Under the pieces are notes generated by a model, which was given only the letters and a program-made list of their open reading frames with translations, was not told the origin of the DNA and made no database searches. From contig CAYWPX010000004.1 in the NCBI GenBank assembly GCA_964460615.1, forward strand, positions 19,116 to 83,115: DNA of 64,000 nt, written 5' to 3'. The translations under genes were made by a program, and so were the position numbers. The DNA comes from an uncultured Planctomycetia bacterium. GTDB taxonomy: Bacteria > Omnitrophota > Gorgyraeia > CAYWPX01. Of this stretch, positions 2,012 through 64,000 are shown in pieces (within the stretch, counting starts at the first letter, position 1; every line of letters begins with the position of its first letter).

Positions 2012-3250
2012 TTACTTCACCGCGCAGGTCCCGCCGCCCAATTTTGTTTTGTAGAGTTTTTTATTATAAGGAAGCTTCATTAATAGCATACCCATCAGGC
2101 AGGAATCCGTTATCCCTGAAAAAATCAACCCTGAGCTCACAAATACCGAAATAAATATAAATGCCCAATGCACAAGTACTGCCATAATTATCCCGAATAG
2201 CACTATGGAACCCGCTATCAGCCTGACCTGGCGCTCCAGAGACACTCCGCCTTCTCCTTTTATTACAGAAAGGTTTTCCTTTTGCCAGCGGGTGATCCCC
2301 CCGCTCATGACCTTTACGCCGGAAATCCCTGCCGATAGGAGCATATCAGCTGCCATAGGGGACCTGTTCCCGGTCCGGCAATAGACTATATATTTTTGTT
2401 TAGACTCACTCAGATCATTTATCTTAGAAAGGAGCGTGTCTATGGGTATATTTATAGAGTTATTGATGTGAGCTTCGCTAAACTCCAAATTAGACCTGAC
2501 ATCCAGAAATTTGAAATAAGGGTCTTTTTCTATAATAGTGAGAGCGTCTTTAGGCATGATCATTTCTAAGCCTGCCGCCTCGCCTTTCTGGTTAACGCGG
2601 ATTATATTATCTATATTGAACGGCTTTGGCATAACTTTTGAACGCATATTTTTGACGAAAGTTTCTTTATCCACTTCTACAAAATACGGATTAGCGTTTT
2701 TCTCTTTTTTGATCGTTGAAGAGAATTTTTCATTATAATCATGTCCCGGGAATAATATCGTATCATCCGGAAGAGATTTTAATCTTTGTAGCGTATCAAA
2801 CATCGATTCAGGAGATCCGTTTTGAAAATCCGTCCTTCCCACACTTCCTATTAAAAGCACATCCCCTGTAAATAACCTTCCTTCTCCGTATAAGCTTATA
2901 GCGTCATCTGTATGCCCGGGCGTATATATCACTTTAAAAGCGCTTTCACCTATTTTAATCTCATCGCCTTCTTTGACCCGGTTTGAGGCAACGCTTGATA
3001 TCGCTTTTTCGTGCATTATCACCTCTGCTTTAAAATTCTTCTTCAATATCGCCGCCAGAGAAAAATGATCCGCGTGCGTATGGGTATCAATAACGAGTTT
3101 TAGAACAAGTTTATTCTTATTCAAATAACCGCTATACTCTTCCAATAAACTTATATGCCCGTCAATAACCACAGCATCGCCGCTTGAACTTAGGATATAC
3201 GAATAACAGCTCCCCGCCACAAACTGCTTCATCATAAAGTTTTTATTCAT
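2012..3250 (-). CDS. MBL-fold persulfide dioxygenase (ETHE1/CstB-like) fused to a rhodanese domain, with a C-terminal membrane anchor (YgaP/DUF2892-like)
   Basis: HxHxDH metal motif DTHTHADH near the N-terminus. Rhodanese active-site loop CRTGNRS. C-terminal hydrophobic helices and a Cys-containing tail. Confidence 0.65.
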   Translation of the reverse strand: MNKNFMMKQFVAGSCYSYILSSSGDAVVIDGHISLLEEYSGYLNKNKLVLKLVIDTHTHADHFSLAAILKKNFKAEVIMHEKAISSVASNRVKEGDEIKIGESAFKVIYTPGHTDDAISLYGEGRLFTGDVLLIGSVGRTDFQNGSPESMFDTLQRLKSLPDDTILFPGHDYNEKFSSTIKKEKNANPYFVEVDKETFVKNMRSKVMPKPFNIDNIIRVNQKGEAAGLEMIMPKDALTIIEKDPYFKFLDVRSNLEFSEAHINNSINIPIDTLLSKINDLSESKQKYIVYCRTGNRSPMAADMLLSAGISGVKVMSGGITRWQKENLSVIKGEGGVSLERQVRLIAGSIVLFGIIMAVLVHWAFIFISVFVSSGLIFSGITDSCLMGMLLMKLPYNKKLYKTKLGGGTCAVK

Positions 3251-3669: not shown

Positions 3670-4017
3670 TTATTTGCCAAATTCAGAAAGTTTCTTCTTT
3701 AAGTCCTCGGTGGCTTTTTGTGACTTGGCAATAAGCTCCTTCTTTGCGTCTTCAATAACCTTTTTTGCTTCCTGAGAATCACTGTTGAGTTTTCTGATGA
3801 CATTCTGGGCAATATTCATGGCGCCATCATAATCTTTGGCGTTATAGAAAGCCTTGGCCTGCCCCACAAGATACTTTTCTTTCGCCTGAACAGAATTCAT
3901 TGTCTCAGAATGACGTATGGCATCATTGACAGATGAGGCTTTCTTGGGACCGCACCCGACAACTACCGAACTTAAGATCACGAGAAACGACAATATAAAA
4001 AAGTAATATTTCTTCAT
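3670..4017 (-). CDS. Small lipoprotein with a TPR-like helical domain
   Basis: Signal peptide ending in the lipobox-like VVGC. 115 aa, Lys/Ala-rich helical region. Confidence 0.45.
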   Translation of the reverse strand: MKKYYFFILSFLVILSSVVVGCGPKKASSVNDAIRHSETMNSVQAKEKYLVGQAKAFYNAKDYDGAMNIAQNVIRKLNSDSQEAKKVIEDAKKELIAKSQKATEDLKKKLSEFGK

Positions 4018-4070
4018 CTTCTTGATCCTCCCTATCTATTTTTAAGTGGCATCCTATGTGACGCCCCTTT

Positions 4071-5873
4071 TTATTGGCCTATGACTGACTTTAAACCTTC
4101 CATAATATCGCTTACCCCGGTGGACGACTTGTCAGGAGTTACGGGCATGGCTTCTGGCTGAGAAGGGGCATTGGTGCCTATCGCTTTATTTAATAGATCA
4201 CCGACCATTTCTTCGCCTTTTTTTGCCGCAACTTTTGTGCCTATATACTTGAGATCAGGCATAACTGAAATACCTTTACCGGAAGACTTGAACGTAACCG
4301 GGAATTCTATCAGGTTATCTCGGCCGGAGAGATAACGCATCTCTGGAACTCCCTTGATTATGGCATCCGAAAGTAACGGCGCAAAACTGATTGTACCGTT
4401 TCCGGTCAGCGTCCCCCCAAGGGTAAGTTGGGCCGCACCCTTCACATCCGCAAAATCTGTTTCAAATTTCAGATCAGGAAGGTCAATAAGCCCGTCCTTT
4501 ACCGTTATCGACTGATGTATCGGTTTGAGTAACGTATATTGCCTATTTAGGGCTTCTTTGGCTGCCGCCGGTAAGAACATACTTATGGCATCCAGAAGGC
4601 CCGGAATAATAGCAATGCCTCCCAGACTTTGCCTTATAAGATTGGTATCTAAAAGAACTCCGTTATCCAGCGTAAATACTCCATTACCTGAGAGCGACTT
4701 GGAGATCTCCTCCTCGCTAAGTCCTGTCATTGTACCGTCAAATGAAAGCCCGATTTTACCGTCAAGATATTGCGTACCTCCTACAACTGACTGAAGATAC
4801 TGTTTTACTCCTGGGATCTGGGCTTTCACATTCATAGATGTCTCGGGTATGGTATAGATGCTACTAACGTCGGCCGAACCGCCGACCGTGGCATTGGCTA
4901 ACTGCGCAGAAAAAGACCTGAGCGAAAGCCTGTCATCTTGGGCAATAGCTGAAAAATTGACGCGCTCTATCGGGATCTTAAATTGCGTAACTGAAAATTT
5001 ACCGTCACTTAGCATAAGCTCCGCTTCCAGCTTTGATATCTTGTTATCAACAAGTGTGATCTGGGGGACCTTTGCCTTGAGTATGCCTTTTATCTCCTCG
5101 CCTATTCCCATCTTCCCTGCAAGAGGAAGCGCCTGTATGAGTTTTGCATGATTTATCGTCCCCAGATCAACATCAAGATTGAGATCTTTAACATACATAG
5201 GCCCCGTCACAAACCCTCCCGTAGTACCCGAAATATTGACATTCTGCGTAAGAGACAAGAACGCCATTTTAATAATAAAATCTATCGGGGTATTAAGAGA
5301 CACGTTCTTAATATCCGCATCGATAGTATCAATAGAAATATCGGCAGGCGGTTCTCCTGAAAAGTCCTGAAAATGCAAAGTTCCGTTCCTGATAACAATA
5401 GAGCGAATATTAAAGTCAATCGCTATAGGCATAGCAGCAGCTTTTCCCGCTTTAGCAGCCGCCGGACGCGGGGCAGGAGCATTTTTTGGAGTATACCCAA
5501 ACACTTTTATGGTCCCATCCTTTAGTTTTGCTAAATGTATCGATGGACGCATGATCGTTATCGACGATACCTTGATCTGCTTTTTTAAGAGCGGCCAAAA
5601 CTCAAGCGCCATATCGCCACGGGCAAACGACAGCTCTGTAGCCATCTGACCGTCTTTTTCTGTAAAGACCTGAAATTTCTCAATTCCCAGAAGAATTCCC
5701 CCCTTCCATCCAAGCATAAGGCGTTCGATCTTGACAGGGTTCCCGACAATGGCTTCAATCTGGGAAGTGATCGATTTGTTATATTGGTTAATATCAAATG
5801 TTGCAATAAAAATAGCTGCTCCGGCAATTAAAATAATGATGGTTATTAAAATAAGTATGATGATTTTTTTCAT
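4071..5873 (-). CDS. AsmA-family protein (outer-membrane biogenesis / lipid transport family)
   Basis: The N-terminal TM anchor followed by FDINQYNKSITSQIEAIVGNPVKIERL is typical of AsmA N-termini. The 600-aa beta-rich body and the C-terminal region are consistent with AsmA_2. Confidence 0.6.
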   Translation of the reverse strand: MKKIIILILITIIILIAGAAIFIATFDINQYNKSITSQIEAIVGNPVKIERLMLGWKGGILLGIEKFQVFTEKDGQMATELSFARGDMALEFWPLLKKQIKVSSITIMRPSIHLAKLKDGTIKVFGYTPKNAPAPRPAAAKAGKAAAMPIAIDFNIRSIVIRNGTLHFQDFSGEPPADISIDTIDADIKNVSLNTPIDFIIKMAFLSLTQNVNISGTTGGFVTGPMYVKDLNLDVDLGTINHAKLIQALPLAGKMGIGEEIKGILKAKVPQITLVDNKISKLEAELMLSDGKFSVTQFKIPIERVNFSAIAQDDRLSLRSFSAQLANATVGGSADVSSIYTIPETSMNVKAQIPGVKQYLQSVVGGTQYLDGKIGLSFDGTMTGLSEEEISKSLSGNGVFTLDNGVLLDTNLIRQSLGGIAIIPGLLDAISMFLPAAAKEALNRQYTLLKPIHQSITVKDGLIDLPDLKFETDFADVKGAAQLTLGGTLTGNGTISFAPLLSDAIIKGVPEMRYLSGRDNLIEFPVTFKSSGKGISVMPDLKYIGTKVAAKKGEEMVGDLLNKAIGTNAPSQPEAMPVTPDKSSTGVSDIMEGLKSVIGQ

Positions 5874-18784: not shown

Positions 18785-19019
18785 TTTCTAGAAGCTCCGT
18801 ACTTTTCCTTAAGAATTCTACGATCTTAAACGAATGCGACCCCTGCCAGTAGATCCGGCAACATTCCGGACATTTATAATAATCACTATGAGTGCTGTAG
18901 ATATATTGGGGTACCTGATCTTTGATAGAACCCTTATCGATCTTTACGAGCTTTTTGTTACAAAGAACACATAAGCTTAAAAACTTGTAGTTCGTCGTTC
19001 GTACTTCGTATATCGTTAA
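18777..19019 (-). pseudogene. Fragment homologous to the C-terminal zinc-ribbon half of a Mut7-C (PIN-like RNase, DUF82) protein; no start codon or N-terminal domain
   Basis: An open frame with no ATG/GTG/TTG encodes ...LCVLCNKKLVKIDKGSIKDQVPQYIYSTHSDYYKCPECCRIYWQGSHSFKIVEFLRKSTELLENG. The CxxCN...CPxC..YWxGSH pattern is the Mut7-C signature. Its 5' part is occupied by the GTAC-rich palindromic element. It overlaps the start of the PHP gene out of frame. Confidence 0.35.
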
Positions 19020-19057
19020 TTATTCTCGATGTACTATGTACGATATACGATGTACTG

Positions 19058-20347
19058 CTATTCTATAAACTTTCCATCATCAAACACCAGCTTCCCCCCT
19101 ACAAAAGTCTGGAGGATTTTAGCTTTCAACTCTTTTCCCATAAACGGAGTATTCTTGCTTTTTGAAATAATAGTGTCGTTTGTCACGGTCCATTTGGCAT
19201 TAAGGTCTGCTATAACAATATCGGCTATATTGCCTTCTTTTATATAACCAGGATCGAGTTTTAATATCTTAGCCGGATTAATAGCCAATAACCGGACCAG
19301 TTCCGATAAACTTAGCACTTTTTTCTCGACCAGCTCCATATAAGAAACGCTAAAAGCTGTCTCAAGGCCGATTATCCCGAAAGGCGCAAAATCAAATTCA
19401 ACATATTTTTCAGAGTCTGTATGGGGCGCGTGGTCAGTGGCTATCACATCTATAGTGCCGTCTTGAAGCCCAAGCCTGACCGCCTCTAAGTCGGATTTGG
19501 ACCTTAACGGAGGATTCATTTTGGTATTACTATCATAGCCAAGGCAGCTCTCATCGGTAAGTGTAAAATAATGCGGCGCTGTTTCGGCAGTAACCTTAAT
19601 ACCGGAAATTTTGGCTTTCCTTATAATATCTACCGACTCTTTTGTACTTACATGCGCTATATGTATAGGACTTGAAGCCTCTTTAGCAAGATTTATGTCC
19701 CTGTCTACTATTTCATATTCTGCCTTATTAGGTATGCCTCGAAGCCCTGTTATAGTTGAGATATAACCATGATTTACAACTCCTCTGCCGCTGAGTGATT
19801 TATTCTCAGAATGGCTGATCAGAAGTAATCCGTTTTCCCTCGATCCCTTAAGAGCCAGAAGCATCAGCTTTGCATCGTCAACCGAAGATCCGTCATCTGA
19901 AAGCGCTATAATACCCTCTTTTTTCATAGCACCAAAATCGGTCAGCTTCGCTCCAATGCGCCCTTCAGTTATTGCGCCCGAAATATACACTCTGCAAGGC
20001 GCATCAGTTCTAATTATATCCTGAACAAGCTTAACTACCTCGGGCCTATCTATGGCCGGCTCAGTATTCGGCATGCACAATATGGAAGTAAACCCGCCTT
20101 TTATAGCAGCGCGGCTGCCGGTATACACAGTCTCCTTATCTTCACGGCCGGGCTCCCTCAGATGCACATGCATATCGATAAAACCGGGAAAAACATATTT
20201 ATCCCTAGCGTCAATGATATGGTCGGCTTTTAGGTCAAGACCCCTTCCGAGCTTATCGATCTTGCCATCCGCCACAAATATATCCATCACTTCATCGATC
20301 TTATTAAGAGGATCTACGATATGTCCGTTTTTTATTAAATATTTCAT
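19058..20347 (-). CDS. pyrC: Dihydroorotase
   Basis: Motifs FPGFIDMHVHLREPG and DHAPH, 429 aa. It overlaps pyrB by 4 nt. Confidence 0.9.
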   Translation of the reverse strand: MKYLIKNGHIVDPLNKIDEVMDIFVADGKIDKLGRGLDLKADHIIDARDKYVFPGFIDMHVHLREPGREDKETVYTGSRAAIKGGFTSILCMPNTEPAIDRPEVVKLVQDIIRTDAPCRVYISGAITEGRIGAKLTDFGAMKKEGIIALSDDGSSVDDAKLMLLALKGSRENGLLLISHSENKSLSGRGVVNHGYISTITGLRGIPNKAEYEIVDRDINLAKEASSPIHIAHVSTKESVDIIRKAKISGIKVTAETAPHYFTLTDESCLGYDSNTKMNPPLRSKSDLEAVRLGLQDGTIDVIATDHAPHTDSEKYVEFDFAPFGIIGLETAFSVSYMELVEKKVLSLSELVRLLAINPAKILKLDPGYIKEGNIADIVIADLNAKWTVTNDTIISKSKNTPFMGKELKAKILQTFVGGKLVFDDGKFIE

Positions 20348-25592: not shown

Positions 25593-25708
25593 GTTAAACT
25601 CTCCTATTTTCGTCGTTCGACTTTCGTACTTCGTACATCGTTTTTAAAGTTACTTTTATTATTTTATCTTTGTCGATGTACTATGTACGAAGTACGATGT
25701 ACTGCTTT

Positions 25709-60700: not shown

Positions 60701-62576
60701 TGTTTTGCGTTCCACTTGTAGAACCTGAACTGGTAAAATTCGACTGTCCGATAACATAACTGGCGTTCATTCCGTTTGATATACTTGTAACATCATAAAC
60801 TGTGACACGGTTATTCCCGTATCCAACAACAAATAGTCTTCTATTGGTACTGTCATAAGCTAACCCTCTCGGGGTATAAAGCCCGCTTTGGGTTGTTGTC
60901 CCGGAGGAGCCGCTAAAGGTAGTCTGGCCTATTACATAACTGGCGTTCATACCATTTGTTATCCCGGAGCTCAGGTCAAAAACAAGAACCCTGTGGTTTG
61001 TGCCGTCAGAAACAAATAAATAATTTCTCGCACTGTCATATATTACATCTGTAGGCTGGTTCATAGTAGATTGCGTAGCAGAAGAACTATATGAAGTAAA
61101 ATCCGTCTGGCCTAAAACATAATCTGCCGCATAATCTACAAGGTGATCGGTTGAATCAAGATTAAAAACTAAAACTCTGTTATTATTCGTATCAGCAACA
61201 AATAACCTGTGATTTACAGAATCGATCGCAGGGGATCCAAAAGGCTGGCTAAACCCTCTATTATTTGGCCCGCCATTAATAGCCCCTGTTGTATAAACAG
61301 GATTACCCGATCCATCCAACTGACCCAGCAAATTGGATGCATTCATACCGTTTGATATAGAAGCAGTATTAAACACCATTATTCTGTTGTTAGAATAATC
61401 ACCGACATATAAATTTTGGGTTGTCCCGTCAAAAGATACGCCATATGGCGAATATAACCTGTTTTGCGAAGTTGTATAACTACTCCCTGACCATGTTGTC
61501 TGCCCAAGAACGTAACTCGCATTCATGCCATTTGACATAGTAGTAACATTAAACACCATTATCCTGTGGTTATTCCTGTCCGTAACAAAGAGCAGTTTAT
61601 TTGTACTGTCATAACCAAGGCCGCATACACCACTTAGTGTAGATTGGCTTGCCGAACCTGAAGTTCCTGTCCAGGTGGTCTGCCCTAAGACATACGAAGC
61701 ATTCATTCCATTACTGATACCCGAATTAAAATTAAAAACCAATACTCTGTTACAGCTTAGATCGCTTACGAATAAATTCTTTGTTGTTGAATCATAGGCA
61801 AGCCCTATCGGCCAGGTCATCGTATTCTGCGATGCTCCGCCAGAGTAAGTAGTAAAATCCGGCTCCCCAAGAACATAAGTAGCATTCATGCCATTAGTAA
61901 TGCCACCGGCCAAGCTAAATACTAATACCCTTCTACGATTTCCATCAGCCACAAATAGATAATCGTTCGAATTGTCATAAAGCATTTGTGCGGGATAATA
62001 AAATCCGTTCTGGCCTCCTCCTGTTGCGGTATTAGTAAAATTTGACTGGCCAATTACGTAGCTGGCATTCATACCATTTGTAATGCCACTGGATAGATCA
62101 AAAACCAAAACCCTATTGGCATTCTCTTCGGAAACAAACAATCGTTTGTTTGCGCTATCATACGCCAAATATTTAGGGCCCACCATATTATTCTGGGAAG
62201 CCGAGCTGACATTTGTTGAAAAATTAGGTTGTCCTAAAACATAATCTGCAGATCTATCCACAAGATTATTACTGCTATCAAGATTAAAAACCAAAACCCT
62301 GCGGTTAGTGACATCGGCAACGAATAACCTATGGTCAACAGTATCTACTTCAACGCCCATAGGTTGGTAAAGAGATCTATTACTAGGGGTGTCATTAGGC
62401 CCATTTTTTGTATAAATAGGTGAACCGGCATCGAGTTCGCCGGCAAGATTTATAGCATTTGCGCCATTTGTTATTGAAGCGGCAAAAGAAAAAATAGCAC
62501 TTCCACTTAAAATTAAAACGAAAGTGCTAATAATAACCAATATTCTGATATTTTTTATTTTCTTTTTAGTTTTCAT
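36795..62576 (-). CDS. Giant secreted or surface protein of about 8590 aa with these segments: Sec signal peptide; NHL-repeat beta-propellers; G/S/T/N-rich beta-helix-like repeat modules; LamG (concanavalin A-like) domain; CBM4_9-like carbohydrate-binding domain; C-terminal Ig-like domains; Pro/Gln-rich tail
   Basis: An uninterrupted 25.8-kb ORF. The likely start is the ATG at 62574-62576 (MKTKKKIKNIRILVIISTFVLILSGSAIFSFAAS), with an AAGGTG RBS 6 nt upstream. The track start at 62621 is TTG. About 14 NHL repeats of the type NNRVLVFDL/NNRIMVF span aa 60-795. The LamG signature spans aa ~2770-2975 (WYHIAYTV..YKIYVNGVE..GSIDEVRVYDYAL). The CBM-like domain spans aa ~4140-4290 (FESGTFETGDFTGWANE). 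There are large internal repeats. Codon usage and composition match the neighbouring genes. Confidence 0.8.
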   Translation of the reverse strand: MKTKKKIKNIRILVIISTFVLILSGSAIFSFAASITNGANAINLAGELDAGSPIYTKNGPNDTPSNRSLYQPMGVEVDTVDHRLFVADVTNRRVLVFNLDSSNNLVDRSADYVLGQPNFSTNVSSASQNNMVGPKYLAYDSANKRLFVSEENANRVLVFDLSSGITNGMNASYVIGQSNFTNTATGGGQNGFYYPAQMLYDNSNDYLFVADGNRRRVLVFSLAGGITNGMNATYVLGEPDFTTYSGGASQNTMTWPIGLAYDSTTKNLFVSDLSCNRVLVFNFNSGISNGMNASYVLGQTTWTGTSGSASQSTLSGVCGLGYDSTNKLLFVTDRNNHRIMVFNVTTMSNGMNASYVLGQTTWSGSSYTTSQNRLYSPYGVSFDGTTQNLYVGDYSNNRIMVFNTASISNGMNASNLLGQLDGSGNPVYTTGAINGGPNNRGFSQPFGSPAIDSVNHRLFVADTNNNRVLVFNLDSTDHLVDYAADYVLGQTDFTSYSSSATQSTMNQPTDVIYDSARNYLFVSDGTNHRVLVFDLSSGITNGMNASYVIGQTTFSGSSGTTTQSGLYTPRGLAYDSTNRRLFVVGYGNNRVTVYDVTSISNGMNASYVIGQSNFTSSGSTSGTQNRFFAPKGVAYDDGTTVKRLFVVDSSNQRVMVFDVTSITNGEDAINVLGQPDFSTTWGTCSQSKLVNPEGAAYDSIDKRLFVADYGNSRIMVFDVNEITNGETALYVLGQPNFTTSSYGLTQNKLSYPRGVTYDSTNKIIIATDTGNNRLMFFDGTPPLTRYWVASGSGNWSDPNNWSSSSGGDGGAGAPVTGDTAIFDGANGKNGNLVIDTNISVGTLDFQAGYSGTITQGANTITASIIMNLMGTDLTLGADLTCGGNLTIGANRTLSLNGKNLVVSGTFSNDGTVKLNGDETTVTLTGDTNSGLFEYNASSGTKSIKNIGYYNLKIDGGATFRLSTASTTTVYGNLDIISGTLDTNDGTTNRTLQLSGSGNITITGTLNANSSNIYCPGNWDSSNGVFNKGTSAVYFSGTSGIKTVKLGNGQSFNNLSKSSGSTLQPLSNIEIGGIFSVASGIFDQGSYDLRVVGNVSVNGGGTWQNNGTGDVTLGGGVANSGTITFNGNGGTAAGGDNDDILIRSTVDNTQRAWSGTGTFTMIDVNVKDQTRTGTAIAVVSGTDSLNNVGWIFVGANTVCGSIYTSDLVSKVEGGLSVKAVINGTTTYNTTTTSNGDFVFNDVSLVANDKMIIYISGSAVKGSLVTKVSTGGTLSGLEFYAGFVTLRHEAGITQLTNADLISAKISDTDILYDMSGNNAIFTQGLYVPRNKIYVPGGNISIQGNWDIRGSFTPGQYDVTFNGSSAQTMNGSMELLFNSLTISNTSGVSAYGYQEIYISSHLTISEDALYDIGNAMFSASEAQFDNNGTFKIGGGSYPIINNDLDSGTIWYYGNSYWYGDSLPLGSTYNNLKISDYFLVFSDSGEVYIYVANNLDLSGDLYINGYDVFINTDYDGNGVGSFNHTSGTVTVSSGSLSTYLHIYSTGATYLNNIVVGSDFMGSSGYLYVYSDNISGASSTDSITLNEGATISCSEMSWSAYIGFFSNTNIAINGAISLPLGVMSSMDFNFDYDNTDAAGSESFSIGPNGNVVGYSNSVNVTKGGSWTASSGDFLSKISASMATIKSNTGAFTLNTGLSSSIATLTLQAETDLTINSPLAIAGSVTFNANNNIAVNDNITATAATSVSMKADNDGNGTGDVSILAGKTVSLGANTTFYFKQNSNIVSADLFTGETPRITGGGGSSITLYSTKNDITINSDLTRTYCLFYAANDLNINSNIVTTSSTSNSFYADYDSSGVGLFKQAQSSTITSSYNLLIYSSYSSGNAGSIGNIVTTGSTATPVFYKRAGASNAVYNAYDGVNINSNYAISIQSGVTINAQNSNWSCKYTFSAVGTFNGGTSTLTFNGTGNQSFSNGATNTYNNIVINNTGVSPNNRITPNATLTVNGDITITAGVLNLGTSSPNVTIGGNVTIANGATWTKQVTAERSVMFTGAGKIFKDSNVTTQNIGTVNINGSLSIDATGNGMTVQTVFINNGGTLAVGASILTSVGLLQIASGGTLSATTGTIYCGSNWDNTNGTFIYGSSTVVMNGTGSISCGVFAQVPKRFYNFTINTSGTITLNTGICLANGGKLKLQSGTLNGAYDMYVYASANSFENNGIIYGAQKPTVDLLINSTNPASPNILPGVTSQNPYPHLNIRGGVGDASSYGKLGGNIYCSNFMIATWQTNDVGVIDTDSPNNYSITVTGDMNIGATWDSSHSSQLLANNSTISVTGYVNIRPNTSANVSAIVFGDGTSYAAPSMTIGGDFTNSGTLTGGNATINCAGSWSGTGSFNYGTSTINLNGTASGKTFDPGTAALYILKVNGQGGYWTLVNHNLTVSNSLEVIRGTFDMSTFNLTANNYVIVGGNSGETGILRGGSGNMTIGGAGAGHLDIRSGTFVASNTVNMSDAGSFNCAAAENADWMTNTSTFDINALDFQLIGTFNNLIIEDTRDTGVSSPSGEATINGDLTINGSSTGPGLDPFGLTVNGSLVLNGDALVAIQQGYYLPVAGSVTINGNANIAIIDDGGIEVGGNWTNNTSGGFSSTEYGVIKFTGSGTSIISGNNMFYNLDLSTESGKTIKFEAGSLQIIQGIIWLSGSDESHKLTLRSTVDDTRYTLRLYEDFSATYVDVKDCVSDSTLISAGEGCVDSGNNRAWSFGRLMGWWKLDGDALDYSGNGYDGTETGITYGSGVMVEYGRNPGTASASFDGLTSYISIPNSPEIVGSYTVEAWAKLTGNGTEIAIFGSRSPWDSSFDFKFEGGTTIHGDIGDGDEWVTTYADASYAYSLNTWYHIAYTVTTTGYKIYVNGVEAQAENFAQHSLPLLSDSNHELVIGNAGIGHSEFFKGSIDEVRVYDYALAPTDIANHYKNGWNGEGEWSSSSNWAAGQLPATEGRALIESGTVLLNSTYEVGSFGMSGGTLDGSEGTLMVNGNLSFSNGAFTKGLSTIIINNSGSITSNNQQFNNLAIYPGNLVTIADNLNVTGTLDIVGTLTQTTNNVTAGSVIVEAPGLWENFSTGDVVLGGSVSNDGIIDFEGNPSAGDPISITSSVTGTQRNWQGAGVFTLLDVNVKDQSCIGGTPASIAPGSSTNSGNNTNWVFGEGASNTIAGSLYNAIGGSKITDAKTIKVSINGSTPTQATSSNGDFSLTTSDTLVANDIITVYLSGDTLKASTVTKVSATGDLTGINIVQDYTTIRHEGSITSLTNSDLANMNNLSDTDKLFSVSSGNATFTKGINVLDGKTYTPTGNVVSSGDVAINNGSFLNIYTGTSSYNLSCVNMLINSGGTLFAGTNNSTGTSTITVSGNWTSTSGTFTYGKSTVNLTGTGAINPSTVTAWTAKFYNLTCGASGQVTTLNLTFGVDGVLTIGAGTLTMTGSNTIYLYKSGDALSLDSNAIVDTSFSFISASPQNLPAHTYKRNINIAGSSSTVNQTGEVTIDGHLSIVGDGYAARVDAFNTNSFPLTVKGNLAVGYNTTNQDNNKTLTLGNSTVNIGGNFYQYGVFNSNTSTVIFNGSTAQAIYINAGSFNKLTINNSANTVSLYSTTTTVGSDFTIQSGTFNPNGKTLNVTGNFLKSGGTLYINSTTDLLSVTGNFTVTGGTTNTTSAAGSGAVIQVRGDISISGNNSFDFNYGRIEMLGAGNSAISVSGTNNDFGYNASTYFDINKTNLTDTVTLNSNLNGKHFRHNSGTFDVNGFTASFTGVYYGSTGSQPAKLKMSSGTLNIGRMNYNGGTNSPWYCGPNWSEDISGGTITVYGGQHATYGTAYFANGSNFTPTGGTFRFGGWDTASIFVAETDTADFNFYNLTISDGIYSKSVVIHSSSNPISIKGDFVINQYTSFNANGKTINLSGSWVSSGTFISGNNEVILDGAEGVKYISNNIGSFYDLTISGTGSWSLSGNATVSNEFSISNGNLSLDTYALNIAKYSQTGGTVTGENGIITSTGDFSITGGTFNPVNSTLTLDTTTNNIAFNAGGKQFNNIIFQNNGEMNDKSVTVGAGNYSVNGNIYLFGGPTNEIGLDGSVSSPNFTVLGGVHTLGNVFESGTFETGDFTGWANENPNAQASIASDDAHSGLYSLDVQRNIYSSDYESWSVVSSDFDPMDALRVSLYIKGYVEGCCDDLKVFVKDSEDVYHELHSFRDENYDDWTQVSWDVTPYSPITGIKFEGYNDVQDVSTALIDDITVLVKGHTGSRQGSIYPGSGVWSVEGDLDLTDINLVSGNSEFKLTGSASASVYGTSSFYKLTLETTLGGLDKQISFEKGKTQTVTNTFSIAGASGRVVLLRSTEDDVDGAVDDRYTIAIPGNITSGISYADIKDSVVTGGTIRAPWSNGCVDSGNNSGWIFGDIIAGSLYDAIGGAKITSSKNLKLTVNGALAGTGSTSNGDFSMFSTSAISENSVIAIFVDEDAVKASTVTKVSSSGDISGVNIFQNFATLRHEDGITSISNTDLAIADNINDSDCLVSVDGANKATFSNGVYILTGKVYNPGANIDVAGDWTNGQAFTCGTSTVTFNGTTTQNLKPGNSSFYNLVISNTTANGVQVSTTQLSTLSNGRVTISAGAVLDINTVNFYPYYITNNGTLRMEGGQTVGSYQPINADAGTVELDGSGSYTAFPFSAGTVFYNLKFSGSGTWTISIPSVIPYGYYFYANNNLDIASNITFGGYQWGSAYFYADYDNNGSGTFTQTAGTITIPYVTVYIYSSGNTTLGNNTRTNSYPGPSLMVYSDNAADDSIVVNGAIIGEPGLYANKDITLNGTITNSMAMMGAVLRADYDSTGTGDIMFGGSSQITSSSVTLEKASWTIDNLDMFYKLSSVTSISLYTRGPSGSVTINTPISTGYPYIYIYTNNNININENLTFSSSTGSIVFNADNEANGSGDIIIASGKQITLGASQSLTLKQASSISTSNLFGGGTPKISGGTGGYIILTSTKNDITMDSVLSRTYFAVYAGNDLFVNSNLTGTTSGGTVFQADYDSNGAGAFKQAQGTTIQSVGQVSLYTSGTAATVGNINLTGSSGYLYLFRRVAGSSVSYTVYDNATITTAGTGTGNALFDGVTLYMGSSNWFIKGLFQINSSGGASIVPQNSTITFNGATNQIITGVATFNNFVVANTGSAGNNRVRLASTLTINGNFSLNSGGVDATYGNPNITIAGASNTFTLASGTTWLKQTNANTVTFSGAGTIIKDSNATTLDMGNAVINGSVAVDSTGSGMKTTTLTINPANSLNISNTTLTILGTGTPFTNSGTFTTTGSTVIYTGTTTDTNITATQYNNLALTPSGLTTYILAGNLSGATAMTGTLTLNTDARFDINGKNLTTGGNINIAANTARLQQNFPSGSFGGNTIALGGNMNNSGGGTINISGVSGNNIIITSTNTTQRNWTSTNVTIDYATVSYQNCTSGTIRVNNGLDAGYNTNWMFGAINTVSGSLYDGIGGSKITESKVVEVSINGSSSTFWTTTSNGDYTMEVSGYIGNNIVNVFVAGDDVEASTVTTLGAAANIAGLDMFQDYVTLTHEADKTEITNSDIANAAELGDPAILFSADGDDITFDKGVYIISGKTYNPGGNILVAGNWTNGGTFTYGTSTVTFNGSEVQTLKPGLSFFYNVIISNTTADGVQLSTNALNTATGGRVTISEGAVLDINALGMAAFYLTNQGTLRAEGAQTIITGFPMNTDSGTVELDGSGTYNGLPFFDGTIYYNLRIIGSGSWTLTKTSNYSIYCNNNFDLASNLTINNSFTYSITIYADYDNDGSGRFNQTAGTLTSNVAQNNLNIYSGNETVINNINLTGWMTAANIYSDNNPGTELDNITINGTLTLSMMASYYLYSNGNITINSVISTAPTFTCDYDNNNAGDILFGASGGLSNASAYLKKGGNWTFDTAILDKLTSCTYLTVQSMTGSITINSPITKAYSYLYLYANTDLIINDNITLNGSNGSVYLHADYNNTGAGDISIASGKTVTIPAGSALSYKQTSSLAVSDLYSGTPAKISGGTTSSLVLSSTRNNLTIDQDITRTNIYLYAGNDLNINSNLTSTTSGIQLVADWDSSGAGSFKQNSTSTILDQGSNLDIYSSGDTGTIGNITITPANGGVRFYKKAGAQATYTVHDNAILRSNTSSGNAHFTIDSSSVVVNAGASTWLVKGTFSNYGTFHGENSTLTLSPTAANNYFRTGGSNGYYGTINIQPASGISCGVVGELTNVTGTLTVVSGIFDLANQDPNVTLSGNVVIASGATWLKQDLAGRTTTFNGTGKTFKDSNATTQDLGLVTIIGSLTVDSTGSGMKVTNLTINSGKTLDISNSNLVILGTGTPFTNSGTLTTTGSTVIYRGSTTQTNITATQYNNLILTPATATTYKLADNLSLGTAMLGSLTINANATLDLNGKNLVTGGDINLTAASSKLVQNYPTGSLGGNFFYLGGNMNNSGGGTISIKGTSGNNIVISSSDNVNKRNWTSTNVTIDYATVSYQHCTSGVIIVSNGTDAGNNINWRIGAVVAISGGVYDENYGNLAGVRNVSLVVYYALTDSVSRFDGQTDAGGNYTIYVNPYAANDVLSGFMNIDGVETGGVIVVSAPSSNPVWLNIYQNSVTVGEVGAVYEKTVTASDLTRVDRNAVGDTDIPYQYSGGTLTLDSGFNLIQDLEKTLDLGATNLNMSGSIDNYGSINATGGTVTLSGTSKFIGDYNEGGFSLNNLRISGSYILNVYNGTAITGTLTIDSGASFTSMDYLTCANIVIDGAMDITSGTLAVTGTGTPLTKGVNGTFTTTGSTVFYTGSGTTTNVATLGYNNLTFAPDSATTYNLSGDLTGVNIMTGNLSIYSTATLDVRPSTTDYSIACNNISISGILDASASSSTFTVGGNWNSSSGNFNCGSSTINLVGLAPIFNTGDDKSVFNLNTVTAGQTVTIAGRTYIDGTFTVGSFLGNKVTVLNPGKILDLRNAENPIVFVGSYNQNPGYNIDGLYVTFNPADDGIIPAGRYGSAYIYPRGSYTLTMQGSCTFGVLTLYPQSNGQTSTLDTGGFDLNMSSLTLSHANGALKYGKVIARNSTVNITGNVMIYSSDTGNKNIFDAGSANISVGGNWTNNDTFIKGTSSITLNGAAGQSITTGGALNGFNDISITNASSSGISFLDSLYTDTLSVNTTNLSSGVVLKFKNGVTHTIADSLSLTGVANKLITLNSTLAGSQWSLSAPSGTIVSYVKVKDSNASSFDITANHSANDSGNDDLLASPRWVFPSSTITWLGSSSTGWGLGANWDGGYVPNTTDNVVIAQASRNPLLDVGRAVKSLTINANGDLTCGDKLLTVTENIVNNGTLRTSTGGFTSAGFTSTGSYIATGTNIIITTNDVAISGVFTHNSSTTLFMSGTANLSSTPPLYNLMIEEDSVITPSGTIIINGLYSREPATSSATVNWTTNSSILELRSDINQTLLDSEYYSLVLSKDSAPHVTYELSTDITVENVLSIGSGAVLDTTSDNYNITLGGNWENAGTFLANQSTVEFIDASRTSIVGGSTDFFSLSCYQPGKVFLFEAGTTQSIAEGGELILMGTGGGLITLARYDGSGTDRWNLRINKSYSVTGVNVSDSAVLIPDGTNYTITASDSNNGGNNTVPPWIFLGVKRYWVAQNTAFWNSAANWSDYESGSGGLSVPEAGDMVYFGSEGLGDCNVDVDITLVSMEINNYSGTINFGNHNVNVVGDLNIRNGGKIISGTGSTVIGGSFSIGTASEAVFTNSNLDIKNNMYFNGRFVAPAASKSFTLKGNFTNDLGQFVNSSGTVSFYSTMDSEISGDNTFYNLNCTTGGKKLSFADSSTQIIASDLTLASSSTGIITLQSSSSAGTWSINFTKSGVEYLSYDYLTVTGGISNIPVYVKNSTNVTGCINWYKVPVTGDTISTANVQPASLVAGSTGEVMVDFTTSKQLPSNAIIDVVFSSSFTLNSKGTTSVSSSTIDGDLVVSNPSTTTVRIVRSSGSLESSGTERLTLTSIMNPISVGSDGTYSIYIKLPDNNETVIDQVENIAADTFRLGSFIVSASSQQVSGVEFEITITAKGADNVTITNYSEEINLATTYVTPDSGTKTLTPESHSSWSNGVATVNAKYNDCGTIVIKAAQSTDPTIEGESGNIAFIPYDFVVTTSAYNASTTSNASSTATSTGSSSSVTGTSQTVNRPFSIDVAARSASGGVTPNYAGPANLAIQYVTPSTNQQGTLSKAVLSDADFNNGLARLSGVTYNKWGAIRIVASDGTDATKKGISQIITFNPNNFAISLSRPLASRNFYYVNEPFNMDLVALDYNGAKIGNYSGTVGISDTSFGLPASYTFSASDLGLHKFVGLKGSSEELKTFTVQDRINNSVTGSGNFTIRQGTIKIISTTSPVGAKEVDVQIVDSSGNIITQDSSTRFTISLSEAIDDASSTSEAVTKPVIIMNGVAKFIVRDTQGEVVTITPTSTPLLLSVPGTVTFGTVKGAGVNVRMWREVRPMIAPKVKTIVTPSISTSPVKSIAPQPQQLAPQPQQVTPQATTPKEGMDKEKNMFQKDNSQDKLDSE

Positions 62577-62610
62577 TTTACACCTTTTTGGGCTTATGCA
62601 TAATAATAAC

Positions 62611-62640
62611 AAAAAACCCAAGCTCCAATTTCCGCTTGGG
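62611..62640 (-). terminator. Hairpin plus U6 intrinsic terminator/attenuator about 35 nt upstream of the giant gene start codon
   Basis: The minus-strand RNA reads cccaagc-ggaaauugga-gcuuggg followed by UUUUUU. It is located between the structured leader (62641..62870) and the RBS of the giant gene. Confidence 0.5.
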
Positions 62641-62679
62641 TTAATAAGAAAATTTAAAGTTAATTTTTCTTAATTTCGG

Positions 62680-62870
62680 CAGCCCTGCTATCCCGAAACT
62701 TCGGGACCAGAAGCTTTGCTCCGACGCCTTATATTTCAGCTGTCGGAGTTCCGACTTCCAATAACTAATTACTGGAACATCGGAACGTCCCCGGATTACT
62801 CCGGGTTTGCCTCCCGACGTTTGCAGTCGGGACCCGCACCAAGCGGATTTTCGCTTATATTCTAATATAA
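62680..62870 (-). promoter_or_regulatory. Highly structured region of five consecutive near-perfect GC-rich hairpins; candidate 5' leader, riboswitch-like element or small ncRNA. Strand uncertain
   Basis: Hairpins, each in an AT-rich context: cccgaa-ac-ttcggg; ctccgac-N16-gtcggag; ttccga..ccagtaattagttattgg..tcggaa; ccgga-ttac-tccgg; cccgac-gtttgca-gtcggg. The ORF-track 85-aa ORF 62641..62898 overlaps these hairpins and is probably not coding. Confidence 0.35.
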
Positions 62871-63175
62871 GTATATCATAAGAATGGTTATTTATCAATA
62901 GGTCCCCATTTTTAATGTTTTTTTAATATTTTTCTAACATTTCTTAACAAATTTAACTTTTTCTACAACTTTTCAAAAGTTATTTTATATCTTTACTATA
63001 ATTATAGCTCTTTTTATCATTCCTGAATTCCCCCCGACTACTACATTCGAGGGCAGGTTTTGTCAGGAATCTATCATTTTGTCATACCTGCCTACCGGTT
63101 TACCTGCCGTAGGCATGGCAGGCAGGCCCGAGATCTTTAGTCGGGTATCCAGTTCTTATTTATAGATTCCCGCCT

Positions 63176-63222
63176 GCGGCGGACAGGCCCGCCTGCGCGG
63201 GAATGACAGATTATTAAGTTTA
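63176..63222. repeat. Left copy of a 41-bp perfect direct repeat (ggacaggcccgcctgcgcgggaatgacagattattaagttt) flanking the GIY-YIG gene
   Basis: The identical 41-mer recurs at 63769..63809. It contains the hairpin cccgc-ctgc-gcggg. Confidence 0.85.
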
Positions 63223-63264
63223 AGCTCTTTTGTCATACCCGCATTGTTCTTGGCGGGTATCCAG

Positions 63265-63555
63265 TTATTTTATCAATTCAGGATATAAGTCATCCCAATT
63301 TGGATTATCTTTTTCAATAAGCCTGATTTTCCATTCTCTTTTCCACTTTTTCATCTGTTTTTCTTTTAATATGGCAGATTCAACATCAGAAACTTCATCA
63401 AAAAATACCAATTTGCTAACATCATATTTCTTTGTAAATCCATCCACCAAGCGATTCTTGTGTTCAAATACTCTTTTAATAATATTATTTGTTACTCCAA
63501 TATACAGCGTTCCATTCTTTTTACTTGCAAGGATATAGACATAATATTGGCTCAT
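63265..63555 (-). CDS. Small GIY-YIG nuclease-family protein (96 aa)
   Basis: MSQYYVYILASKKNGTLYIGVTNNIIKRVFEHKN contains the GIY...YIG motifs with conserved R and E. It is a stand-alone catalytic domain. Confidence 0.8.
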   Translation of the reverse strand: MSQYYVYILASKKNGTLYIGVTNNIIKRVFEHKNRLVDGFTKKYDVSKLVFFDEVSDVESAILKEKQMKKWKREWKIRLIEKDNPNWDDLYPELIK

Positions 63556-63761
63556 ACTTCTTTAATTAAATTTCCTTTGATTAACTAAACCCTGGATTCC
63601 CTTAGGAATTTTAAATCATAAAATTCCAAGGACTTAGTCTCCCCCGAAATTGCAAAGCAATTTCTGGGGATAAAATCCTGGAAATTGAATCACAATTTCT
63701 CAGGACCGGAAATGCTACGCATTTCTCGGGCCCGCCTGCCGGCCCTCGGCTTCGCCGCGAG

Positions 63762-63812
63762 GCGAGCGGACAGGCCCGCCTGCGCGGGAATGACAGATTA
63801 TTAAGTTTTAAT
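63762..63812. repeat. Right copy of the 41-bp direct repeat
   Basis: Matches 63181..63221 exactly over 41 nt. Confidence 0.85.
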
Positions 63813-64000
63813 ACCGTGGTGCCTGGCACCTAGGTTGAAGATGACGATGAATTCGCCTTTAGGATTATTTTTAGAAAAGTGCGCGATTGACTCGCTTACC
63901 TTTTCGCGCCTTACCTCTTCGAATTTTTTTGTAAGCTCTCTTGAAACTACAATTTTAATATCGCCAAAAATTTCTAGTATATCTTCCAAAAGCCCCAAAA
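63801..64000 (-). CDS. rsmI: 3' end of a 16S rRNA 2'-O-methyltransferase RsmI-like gene (tetrapyrrole-methylase family); partial, continues beyond the window
   Basis: The C-terminal peptide ...VVSRELTKKFEEVRREKVSESIAHFSKNNPKGEFIVIFNLG resembles the RsmI C-terminus (ELTKLHEE..RGT..E....KGE.V.VI.G). Confidence 0.45.
   Translation of the reverse strand, partial: LGLLEDILEIFGDIKIVVSRELTKKFEEVRREKVSESIAHFSKNNPKGEFIVIFNLGARHHGIKT

Follow-up and report, generated by a model that had tools for sequence, protein, structure and literature searches.

A Ssn-family GIY-YIG nuclease gene bracketed by tagged hairpins next to rsmI in an uncultured Omnitrophota bacterium

What is a lone, small GIY-YIG nuclease gene doing between two perfect direct repeats, in DNA that is crowded with GC-rich palindromes? 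The question is raised by a locus close to the right end of a 64,000-nt stretch (hereafter the window; positions 19,116 to 83,115 of contig CAYWPX010000004.1, assembly GCA_964460615.1) from an uncultured bacterium of the Omnitrophota, where the initial annotation had seen a small selfish or mobile cassette. The reading that best draws together the family membership, hairpin anatomy, gene-hairpin layout across phyla, direct repeat and foreign-looking composition observed here is that the locus is very probably a Ssn/SRM module, in which the 96-amino-acid protein is a nuclease of the Ssn family, the palindromes are its cognate tagged hairpins and the repeat is a local rearrangement at those hairpins. 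The initial annotation had missed that such a system is already described, namely CGTC/TGTC-tagged repetitive extragenic palindromes (REPs), known as NTS or SRM, together with a Ssn-family enzyme.

The two halves of this system come from separate studies. CGTC-tagged REPs were defined by a CGTC tag, often TGTC, a stem of 8-9 bp whose first bases are AT, and a CCA tail (Di Nocera et al., BMC Genomics 2013, PMC3733652); they include dRS3 of Neisseria and RPE-4 and RPE-6 of Rickettsia, typically have loops of 4-5 nt with exceptions noted, often occur as head-to-head pairs, and were concluded in 2013 to be without a dedicated transposase or enzyme (PMC3733652). NTS (CGTCATTCCCGCGMAVGCGGGAATCYRG) was later described as the oriented form of dRS3, and its relatives, the SRM, were found to flank the small GIY-YIG gene ssnA across bacteria (Chenal et al., Nat Commun 2025, PMC11893778), a degenerate pattern detecting at least one SRM near 71% of the homologs and SRM on both sides of 42%. 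SsnA of N. meningitidis and three further homologs bound the hairpin only as single-stranded DNA, and cut the hairpin strand a few nt upstream of the tag, leaving double-stranded DNA, RNA and the reverse strand uncut; the identity of the loop was dispensable and the loop could be extended (PMC11893778). The same authors reported that meningococcal SsnA lowers transformation by NTS-bearing DNA, likened NTS-ssnA-NTS to an insertion sequence, suggested domestication, and equated the Ssn family with cd10448 (PMC11893778). The literature on YhbQ, on COG2827/UPF0213 and on GIY-YIG proteins with hairpins yielded nothing relevant, and the link was found via the REP literature.

The open reading frame (ORF) at 63265-63555 on the minus strand, here called ssn, is the one credible gene of the region, and its description as a stand-alone GIY-YIG gene for 96 amino acids was borne out by the Pfam search (PF01541, E=2.2e-14, 77 of 78 model positions covered by residues 3-77). 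The search returned no second domain, and the C-terminus lies 19 residues past the GIY-YIG domain. The protein aligns over its full length and without gaps to the SsnA ortholog of N. gonorrhoeae with 49% identity (E=8e-38 pairwise; E=8e-27 in a 7.3-Gb database). The homology criterion used by the authors of the Ssn family was E<1e-10 to characterised SsnA; the reference used here was the gonococcal ortholog and not the N. meningitidis sequence. This ortholog, taken from a gonococcal chromosome that is mislabelled as a plasmid in PLSDB, has 94 amino acids, carries Y6, Y17 and E64, and has nine exact NTS copies in the 3.3 kb around it.

Across 27 homologs, residues Y7, Y18, R28, H32 and E65 are invariant, as is a C-terminal motif (W71-R73-W75-K76 ... 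N84-P85-W87-D89). Y7, Y18 and E65 align with Y6, Y17 and E64 of the gonococcal ortholog, and mutation of the Tyr/Tyr/Glu counterparts abolished cleavage by N. meningitidis SsnA (PMC11893778). The AlphaFold model of the protein is one compact GIY-YIG domain (pLDDT 94.4), whose closest folds in the Protein Data Bank (PDB) are the UPF0213 proteins BH0048 and EF2693 and the Slx1 nuclease domain (1zg2, 7cq2, 1ywl, 4xlg); the PDB copy searched held no Ssn structure, NCBIfam had no model for the family, and PADLOC returned only sub-significant matches. Single-domain size, homology to SsnA, catalytic residues and flanking SRM hairpins are all found together, and the protein is a member of the Ssn family. 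By analogy with the four homologs tested in vitro, it would act as a site-specific endonuclease on single-stranded DNA.

Read on the proper strand, the hairpins around ssn follow a common plan, with an unpaired TGTC tag, a stem starting with AT (ATACCCGC or ATTCCCGC), a loop, the stem complement and an unpaired CCA(G) or CTA tail. This is the general SRM form, in which a (T/C)GTC tag is followed by an 8-bp stem beginning with AT, a variable loop, the complementary stem and a CCA or CTA tail. The 11-mer TGTCATWCCYG is present in four exact copies and one copy with a single mismatch, all within 63015-63795, and no exact copy exists elsewhere in the 64 kb; TGTC tags lie at 63231, 63208 (minus strand), 63080 and 63797 (minus strand).

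Two of these hairpins are intact SRM. The one at 63231-63264 on the plus strand (TGTC-ATACCCGC-10-nt loop-GCGGGTAT-CCAG) has a perfect 8-bp stem and a DNA fold z of -4.0, abuts the ssn stop codon in inverted orientation relative to the gene, and is the single match of the published SRM search pattern in the 64 kb, where 0.16 were expected. The other, at 63163-63208 on the minus strand (TGTC-ATTCCCGC-23-nt self-paired loop-GCGGGAAT-CTA), has no stem mismatch under a relaxed detector of tag, stem and tail, folds as DNA at -16 kcal/mol (z=-4.1), and is identical to the Neisseria NTS consensus over its first 20 nt after the T. Next to them are two degenerate SRM on the plus strand. That at 63080-63152 (TGTC-ATACC ... 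GGTAT-CCAG; z=-3.4) has an expanded loop with nested CCTGCC/GGCAGG hairpins and contains a 17-nt module, GGCAGGCAGGCCCGAGA, that is found again, inverted, at 63724-63740, while that at 63015-63073 (TATC-ATTCCTGA ... TCAGGAAT-CTA) has a one-mismatch tag and the weakest of the single-strand folds of the four left-hand hairpins, which range from z = -2.0 to -4.1. The loops of the intact hairpins measure 10 and 23 nt and those of the others are far longer; such long-loop hairpins fit the system, since the loop has been shown to be extendable and its identity dispensable (PMC11893778). The tacccgc/gcgggta hairpins pointed out in the initial annotation are the stems at 63231-63264 and 63080-63152.

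Upstream of ssn, the corresponding element is split. An orphan 5' half-SRM, consisting of the tag and 5' stem (63766-63797, minus strand), and a GGGAATCCAG tail (63592-63602, minus strand), 36 nt before the ATG, are separated by approximately 170 nt that fold as local hairpins, so that the minus strand of 63588-63800 forms an array of five consecutive local hairpins (-59.4 kcal/mol, z=-8.8). A single giant-loop hairpin spanning 63592-63797 was considered and dropped, its outer stem having two mismatches and the strand folding locally instead. Relative to the gene, the upstream hairpin is forward and the one directly downstream is inverted, with further units beyond it. The triplet of hairpins that had been noticed near 63640-63730 was recovered as three tandem GAAAT-NN-loop-NN-ATTTC hairpins at 63646-63664, 63681-63699 and 63709-63725 (three matches versus 0.05 expected), with the fuller form CCNG(A)GAAAT-NN-loop-NN-ATTTC-NGG and stems that differ by paired changes; among 106 loci compared, the triplet is confined to the present one. 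Rfam contained no family for these hairpins.

The association of gene and hairpins extends well beyond this genome. Close homologs of ssn number in the thousands, with 65-75% identity (71% for the best match in the GTDB representative genome set), and occur in more than 12 phyla, their hosts including Omnitrophota, Planctomycetota, Chloroflexota, Patescibacteria, Nitrospirota, Bacteroidota, Bdellovibrionota, and Alpha- and Gammaproteobacteria. They share no common genomic setting: one follows a giant gene in an Omnitrophota genome, another lies between a DUF2130 gene and a UvrD/PD-(D/E)XK-type helicase-nuclease gene, and others lie between fabD and fabG. The flanks of 83 independent homolog loci were scanned with a hairpin detector (tag, 8-bp stem with at most one mismatch, tail of C followed by C or T) against shuffled and distal controls. 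The published SRM pattern proved too strict for this sample, finding a hairpin in 43 of the 83 loci and missing stems such as CCCTGC. A tagged hairpin was detected within 300 nt of the gene in 80/83 loci and on both sides in 67/83, the forward-upstream and inverted-downstream arrangement was present in 64/83, and the median gap was 16 nt on the ATG side and 11 nt on the stop-codon side. Hairpins occurred at 4.36 per kb in the flanks, at 0.087 per kb in the remaining parts of these loci and at 0.019 per kb when the flanks were shuffled. The 217 hairpins so collected have 44 different stems, tags of TGTC (167) or CGTC (48), a CCA tail in 171 and a 4-nt loop in 127, with loops of up to 50 nt. In a second set of 41 more distant homologs, from IMG/VR, a hairpin was found at 28/41 and on both sides at 24/41.

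Several further features of the homologs were observed in passing. In Pseudobdellovibrionaceae (L008-L017 and L024, approximately 3950-4440), ssn and its two hairpins sit between fabD and fabG of a fatty-acid synthesis cluster, an arrangement kept in many samples and in at least two related lineages. The N- and C-terminal extensions of P0081, P0091 and other database homologs (MSYPRRRVSS..., ...WIPNQVGNDRQ) are read-through translations of flanking hairpins. Additionally, many homologs lie on very short contigs of 500-2000 nt, which fits assembly breaks at repeats.

Perfect direct repeats around the gene had been reported as 41 bp long; the repeat is there, with a length of 43 nt (63179-63221 and 63766-63808; spacing 587 nt, with 544 nt between the copies), and in none of 100 dinucleotide-shuffled windows were there two copies of the 43-mer. 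On the sense strand of the hairpin (minus), it reads AAACTTAATAATC + TGTC + ATTCCCGC + GCAGGCGGGCCTGTCCGC, in which AAACTTAATAATC is flanking DNA (13 nt), TGTC the tag, ATTCCCGC the 5' stem and GCAGGCGGGCCTGTCCGC a loop segment of 18 nt. The left copy consists of flank and of the 5' half belonging to the intact hairpin at 63163-63208, and the right copy is a hairpin 5' half with no matching 3' stem after it. The repeat is a duplicated half-hairpin with 13 nt of flank, and is neither a transposon end nor an att site. Flanking direct repeats of at least 25 nt (25-204 nt), made of hairpin units and often of whole head-to-head pairs, surround the gene in 26/84 homolog loci, and thus a repeat of the 43-bp type is not unusual.

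The right copy begins with the last two codons and stop of rsmI (AAA ACT TAA on the minus strand, 63801-63808), the host gene adjoining the module; its 3' end occupies 63801-64000 on the minus strand of the window, and the full gene is available in two other contigs, an ENA contig (L001) and a Logan contig of the same genome (L098). Removing one repeat copy and the 544 nt between the copies (587 bp) leaves a single intact hairpin directly after the rsmI stop, and the junction of such a deletion allele would read AAACTTAATAATCTGTCATTCCCGCGCAGGCGGGCCTGTCCGC|CGCAGGCGGGAATCTAT. The simplest history would therefore be the insertion or duplication, within a hairpin already present there, of a segment that carried ssn together with its downstream hairpin and the upstream hairpin array. 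RsmI ends in an 11-residue tail, NLGARHHGIKT, that is not present in relatives and for this reason does not indicate which copy of the repeat is older. The DNA that encodes this tail (63801-63840, minus strand) is itself palindromic (GGTGCCAGGCACC) and extends into the repeat, so that the 3' end of rsmI has been remodelled by hairpin-rich sequence.

No further copy of the 43-mer was found, either in the window or in any of the sequence sets searched. Its hairpin part had no match in IMG/VR and one exact match in JGI metagenomes, a solo copy without ssn on an unrelated GC-rich contig (L106). There, at 4044-4200 of contig Ga0116164_10000009 from a GC-rich organism, the hairpin half TGTCATTCCCGCGCAGGCGGGCCTGTCCGCCG is present as an exact copy of 32 nt, which a long insert again separates from a GGAATCC tail and an inverted partner, with no ssn within 9 kb. 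The long-loop hairpin variant TGTCATTCCCGCGCAGGCGGGCCTGTCCGCCG is common to very different genomes.

Composition and synteny both bear on where ssn came from. Its GC content is 0.289, compared with 0.410 +/- 0.026 in 30 other ORFs of the window (4.6 standard deviations lower); along the region GC is 0.29-0.33 within the gene and 0.48-0.55 within the hairpin clusters. Three Omnitrophota relatives keep the synteny of glmS and rsmI, and in one of them (L103) an amidohydrolase gene precedes the pair, as it does in L098; after rsmI they carry other genes, with neither ssn nor a hairpin. The low GC and the lack of the gene at this position in three relatives fit an acquisition of ssn. The syntenic site in relatives had been proposed as the place to look for a locus without the cassette and with one remaining repeat; the first part was seen, whereas the relatives, with RsmI identities of 62-73% and different downstream synteny, are too distant to offer a clean empty site. 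The initial annotation had also held that a repeat unique to the locus, together with a gene conserved in place, would speak against mobility; the 43-mer is confined to this locus in everything searched, and the gene is not kept in place in the three relatives. In relative L103 (GCA_028699255.1), a different GIY-YIG gene of 83 amino acids, 36% identical, was observed at 1140-1930 next to a tRNA gene; pieces of both the 5' and the 3' end of the tRNA (GCGTCCCCATCGTC... and ...GAATCCCCATGGGGACGCCA) occur twice each around the GIY-YIG gene, which suggests that this gene was inserted at the tRNA.

A different form of the module was found in the Nitrospirota metagenome-assembled genome CAWAQG01, where seven copies of a 556-bp cassette, 98.4-100% identical, lie in seven contexts (L049, L052, L055, L056, L058, L087 and L091). 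The only ORF of the cassette is a 94-amino-acid ssn, and its imperfect terminal inverted repeats of approximately 120 nt each contain two GTTGCATCAC..AAATCTATTCGAA sub-repeats and one tagged hairpin. Perfect flanking duplications of 5-6 bp (GCTCG, CTTTT and AAAGAT) were present at three of the six copies with both ends readable, and a fourth copy has AGGAG/AGAAG, a match at 4 of 5 positions. These cassettes carry the signature of transposition, and ssn cassettes can multiply, whether by means of Ssn or of another transposase.

How well do other explanations account for these observations? A housekeeping repair nuclease of the UPF0213/YhbQ/Slx1 kind, with palindromes that are simply the terminators of rsmI, ssn and their neighbours, would agree with the nearest solved structures and with the position of hairpins at gene ends. 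It is nevertheless very unlikely to be the explanation, because the UPF0213 profile matches the protein only distantly (E=2e-4, against 49% identity to SsnA) and terminator-like sites are no commoner than in shuffles, with one in 62500-64000, inside the upstream hairpin array, where 1.6 were expected. Terminators also have no need of conserved unpaired tags and tails, and the hairpins track the gene across phyla with a 50-fold local excess while its position is not conserved among relatives. A free-standing homing endonuclease of the phage Seg or I-TevI type, which would cleave a defined double-stranded site in genomes without the gene and be copied into them during repair, has the catalytic domain in common with the protein and gave a sub-threshold match to a group I intron endonuclease model (21.5 bits, cut-off 56). 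We give this almost no credence, since 96 amino acids leave no room for the DNA-binding domain that would be required (NUMOD, helix-turn-helix or zinc finger) and there were no matches in 50,697 phage genomes; additionally, the gene lies neither in an intron nor in a conserved gene, and characterised Ssn members do not cut double-stranded DNA (PMC11893778). Equally hard to credit is that the perfect repeat is a product of assembly. The short-read Logan contig L098 does end inside the repeat, but L001, an independent assembly of another sample that covers 62391-64000 at 99.75% identity, has both copies and the same 544 nt between them, its four mismatches falling outside the gene and the repeat, and the repeat is therefore real.

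The explanation that overlaps in part with a Ssn/SRM module is an active transposable element, in which the hairpin-ssn-hairpin unit moves whole, either by Ssn serving as the transposase or as a passenger that is mobilised in trans, and the 43-bp repeat is the footprint of insertion. Models for a hairpin-linked transposase of this kind are provided by TnpA for IS200/IS605 and by the REP-associated tyrosine transposases (RAYTs) for REPs. Gene and hairpins do make up a single unit, whose plan of a lone nuclease gene between inverted hairpins resembles that of an insertion sequence, as the 2025 authors also remarked (PMC11893778), and the outlying GC content, the lack of ssn at this position in relatives, the 65-75% identical homologs in more than 12 phyla and unrelated contexts such as fabD/fabG, and the seven-copy Nitrospirota cassette with its inverted repeats and duplications all point the same way. 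Against it, the window has a single copy of ssn; the locus has no terminal inverted repeats, its sole inverted elements being the hairpins, and no short target-site duplication, the flanks next to the tags being different. The 43-bp repeat, which has no further copy, greatly exceeds the usual length of target-site duplications, an unrelated transposase that recognises the outer repeats of the Nitrospirota cassette could be what moves it, and we know of no GIY-YIG protein that acts as a transposase. On balance, an active element of this kind is unlikely here. The small mobile cassette of the initial annotation is thus upheld in outline, as an insertion-sequence-like unit of gene and hairpins that looks acquired, whereas the repeat is not a transposon end and neither the 43-mer nor the single copy of the gene in the window lends support to mobility at this locus.

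A more specific version would make the modules autonomous mobile elements with the GIY-YIG single-strand nuclease as the cutting step, the 43-bp repeat as their footprint and the Nitrospirota cassettes as a second, more insertion-sequence-like form. The module would enter another hairpin by way of staggered cuts made when that hairpin is extruded, the sense strand being cut 5' of the tag and the opposite strand in the single-stranded loop region; fill-in would then duplicate the half-hairpin and flank, giving the 43-bp repeat, at which removal of the 587 bp restores an intact hairpin. We regard this proposal as doubtful.

The preferred reading, a Ssn-family nuclease with its own tagged hairpins, would work as follows. 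When the DNA becomes single-stranded, through replication, repair or DNA uptake, the tagged hairpins would fold; Ssn would bind a hairpin in one strand orientation only and would nick the bound strand a few nt 5' of the tag, as was demonstrated for four homologs. By homology with the tested enzymes, double-stranded DNA, RNA and the opposite strand would be left uncut.

Several observations weigh against parts of this reading. No tagged hairpin was found in the window outside the cluster of approximately 800 bp at 63015-63800, and a Neisseria-type restriction of incoming DNA may not apply here. With no other copies in the 64 kb, the module looks like a self-contained pairing of a nuclease and its sites, which may be selfish or a remnant, and not like a genome-wide system of the Neisseria type. 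The strict published pattern fits only one hairpin of the window, the upstream element is split or degenerate, and the insertion history proposed for the 43-mer is argued from parsimony.

Some other features of the window were noted. A hairpin had also been reported near 1990-2010 and is indeed a perfect 20-nt palindrome, CCTGCCTGCCGGCAGGCAGG, at 1986-2005; it directly follows the stop of the ORF at 2012-3250 (minus strand) and precedes TATGA, which resembles the GGCAGGTATGACA end of the hairpin at 63080, and it may be a decayed tagged hairpin or simply a terminator. An unrelated palindromic repeat family has two intergenic copies (19001-19055 and 25624-25697), with arms TTCGTACTTCGTA(T/C)ATCGT and the complement ACGAT(A/G)TACGA.GTAC separated by 23-38 nt. 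A c-di-GMP-I riboswitch aptamer (62675-62738, minus strand; 38.4 bits, gathering score 35) lies in the leader of a giant gene of 8608 amino acids (36795-62621, minus strand), preceded by an extended -10 promoter-like site (62898->62870, minus strand), with a weak second aptamer-like match at 62786-62809. This second messenger may control the giant gene, which is surface-protein-like.

The Ssn family and its hairpins were already described and biochemically tested in 2025, and the locus alone adds little to that account. Its interest lies in the presence of the module in the Omnitrophota, in a 64-kb stretch otherwise without such hairpins, which is the opposite extreme from Neisseria and argues that the gene with its own hairpins is the basic entity. 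The half-hairpin duplication marks the hairpins as sites of local rearrangement, and the locus and the multi-copy Nitrospirota cassette together make the mobility of the module, and its agent, directly testable; if Ssn-dependent movement were true, it would define a new class of transposase. For annotation, the module explains why small GIY-YIG genes are surrounded by a class of spurious ORFs and by breaks in assemblies.

Among known systems, the free-standing or intron-encoded GIY-YIG homing endonucleases (I-TevI, Seg proteins) share with the locus the catalytic domain and a selfish-element flavour; their long linkers, DNA-binding domains, cutting of double-stranded DNA and typical occurrence in phages and organelles do not apply here. 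UPF0213/YhbQ proteins and the nuclease domain of eukaryotic Slx1 have the same minimal GIY-YIG fold and are the best structural matches, but they are distant in sequence and lack the conserved C-terminal motif, and we know of no association of these proteins with hairpins. The REP/RAYT systems (REPtrons), with IS200/IS605-like HUH tyrosine transposases and GTAG-tagged REPs, resemble the locus in having a single-copy nuclease gene bracketed by inverted tagged palindromes that fold in single-stranded DNA and can multiply in the genome, and an enzyme that acts on single-stranded hairpins. The tag, however, is another one and the catalytic fold is unrelated (GIY-YIG versus HUH/Y1), and to our knowledge GIY-YIG enzymes have no strand-transfer chemistry. 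CGTC-tagged REPs share the unpaired CGTC/TGTC tag, the 8-bp stem starting with AT and the CCA-type tail (CCA after ATACCCGC/GCGGGTAT, CTA after ATTCCCGC/GCGGGAAT), and differ in their loops of 4-5 nt, compared with 10, 23 or many more nt here, in the low copy number of the present units in 64 kb and in that these flank ssn. From the Ssn/SRM system itself the locus differs in its Omnitrophota host, in having no hairpins outside a neighbourhood of 800 bp, compared with hundreds in pathogenic Neisseria, in an upstream hairpin split by approximately 170 nt of other hairpins, and in its perfect 43-bp half-hairpin duplication. What it has in common with that system is a single-domain GIY-YIG protein of approximately 95 amino acids with the Tyr/Tyr/Glu residues, oriented hairpins with a (T/C)GTC tag and a CCA tail, and the arrangement of hairpin, gene and hairpin.

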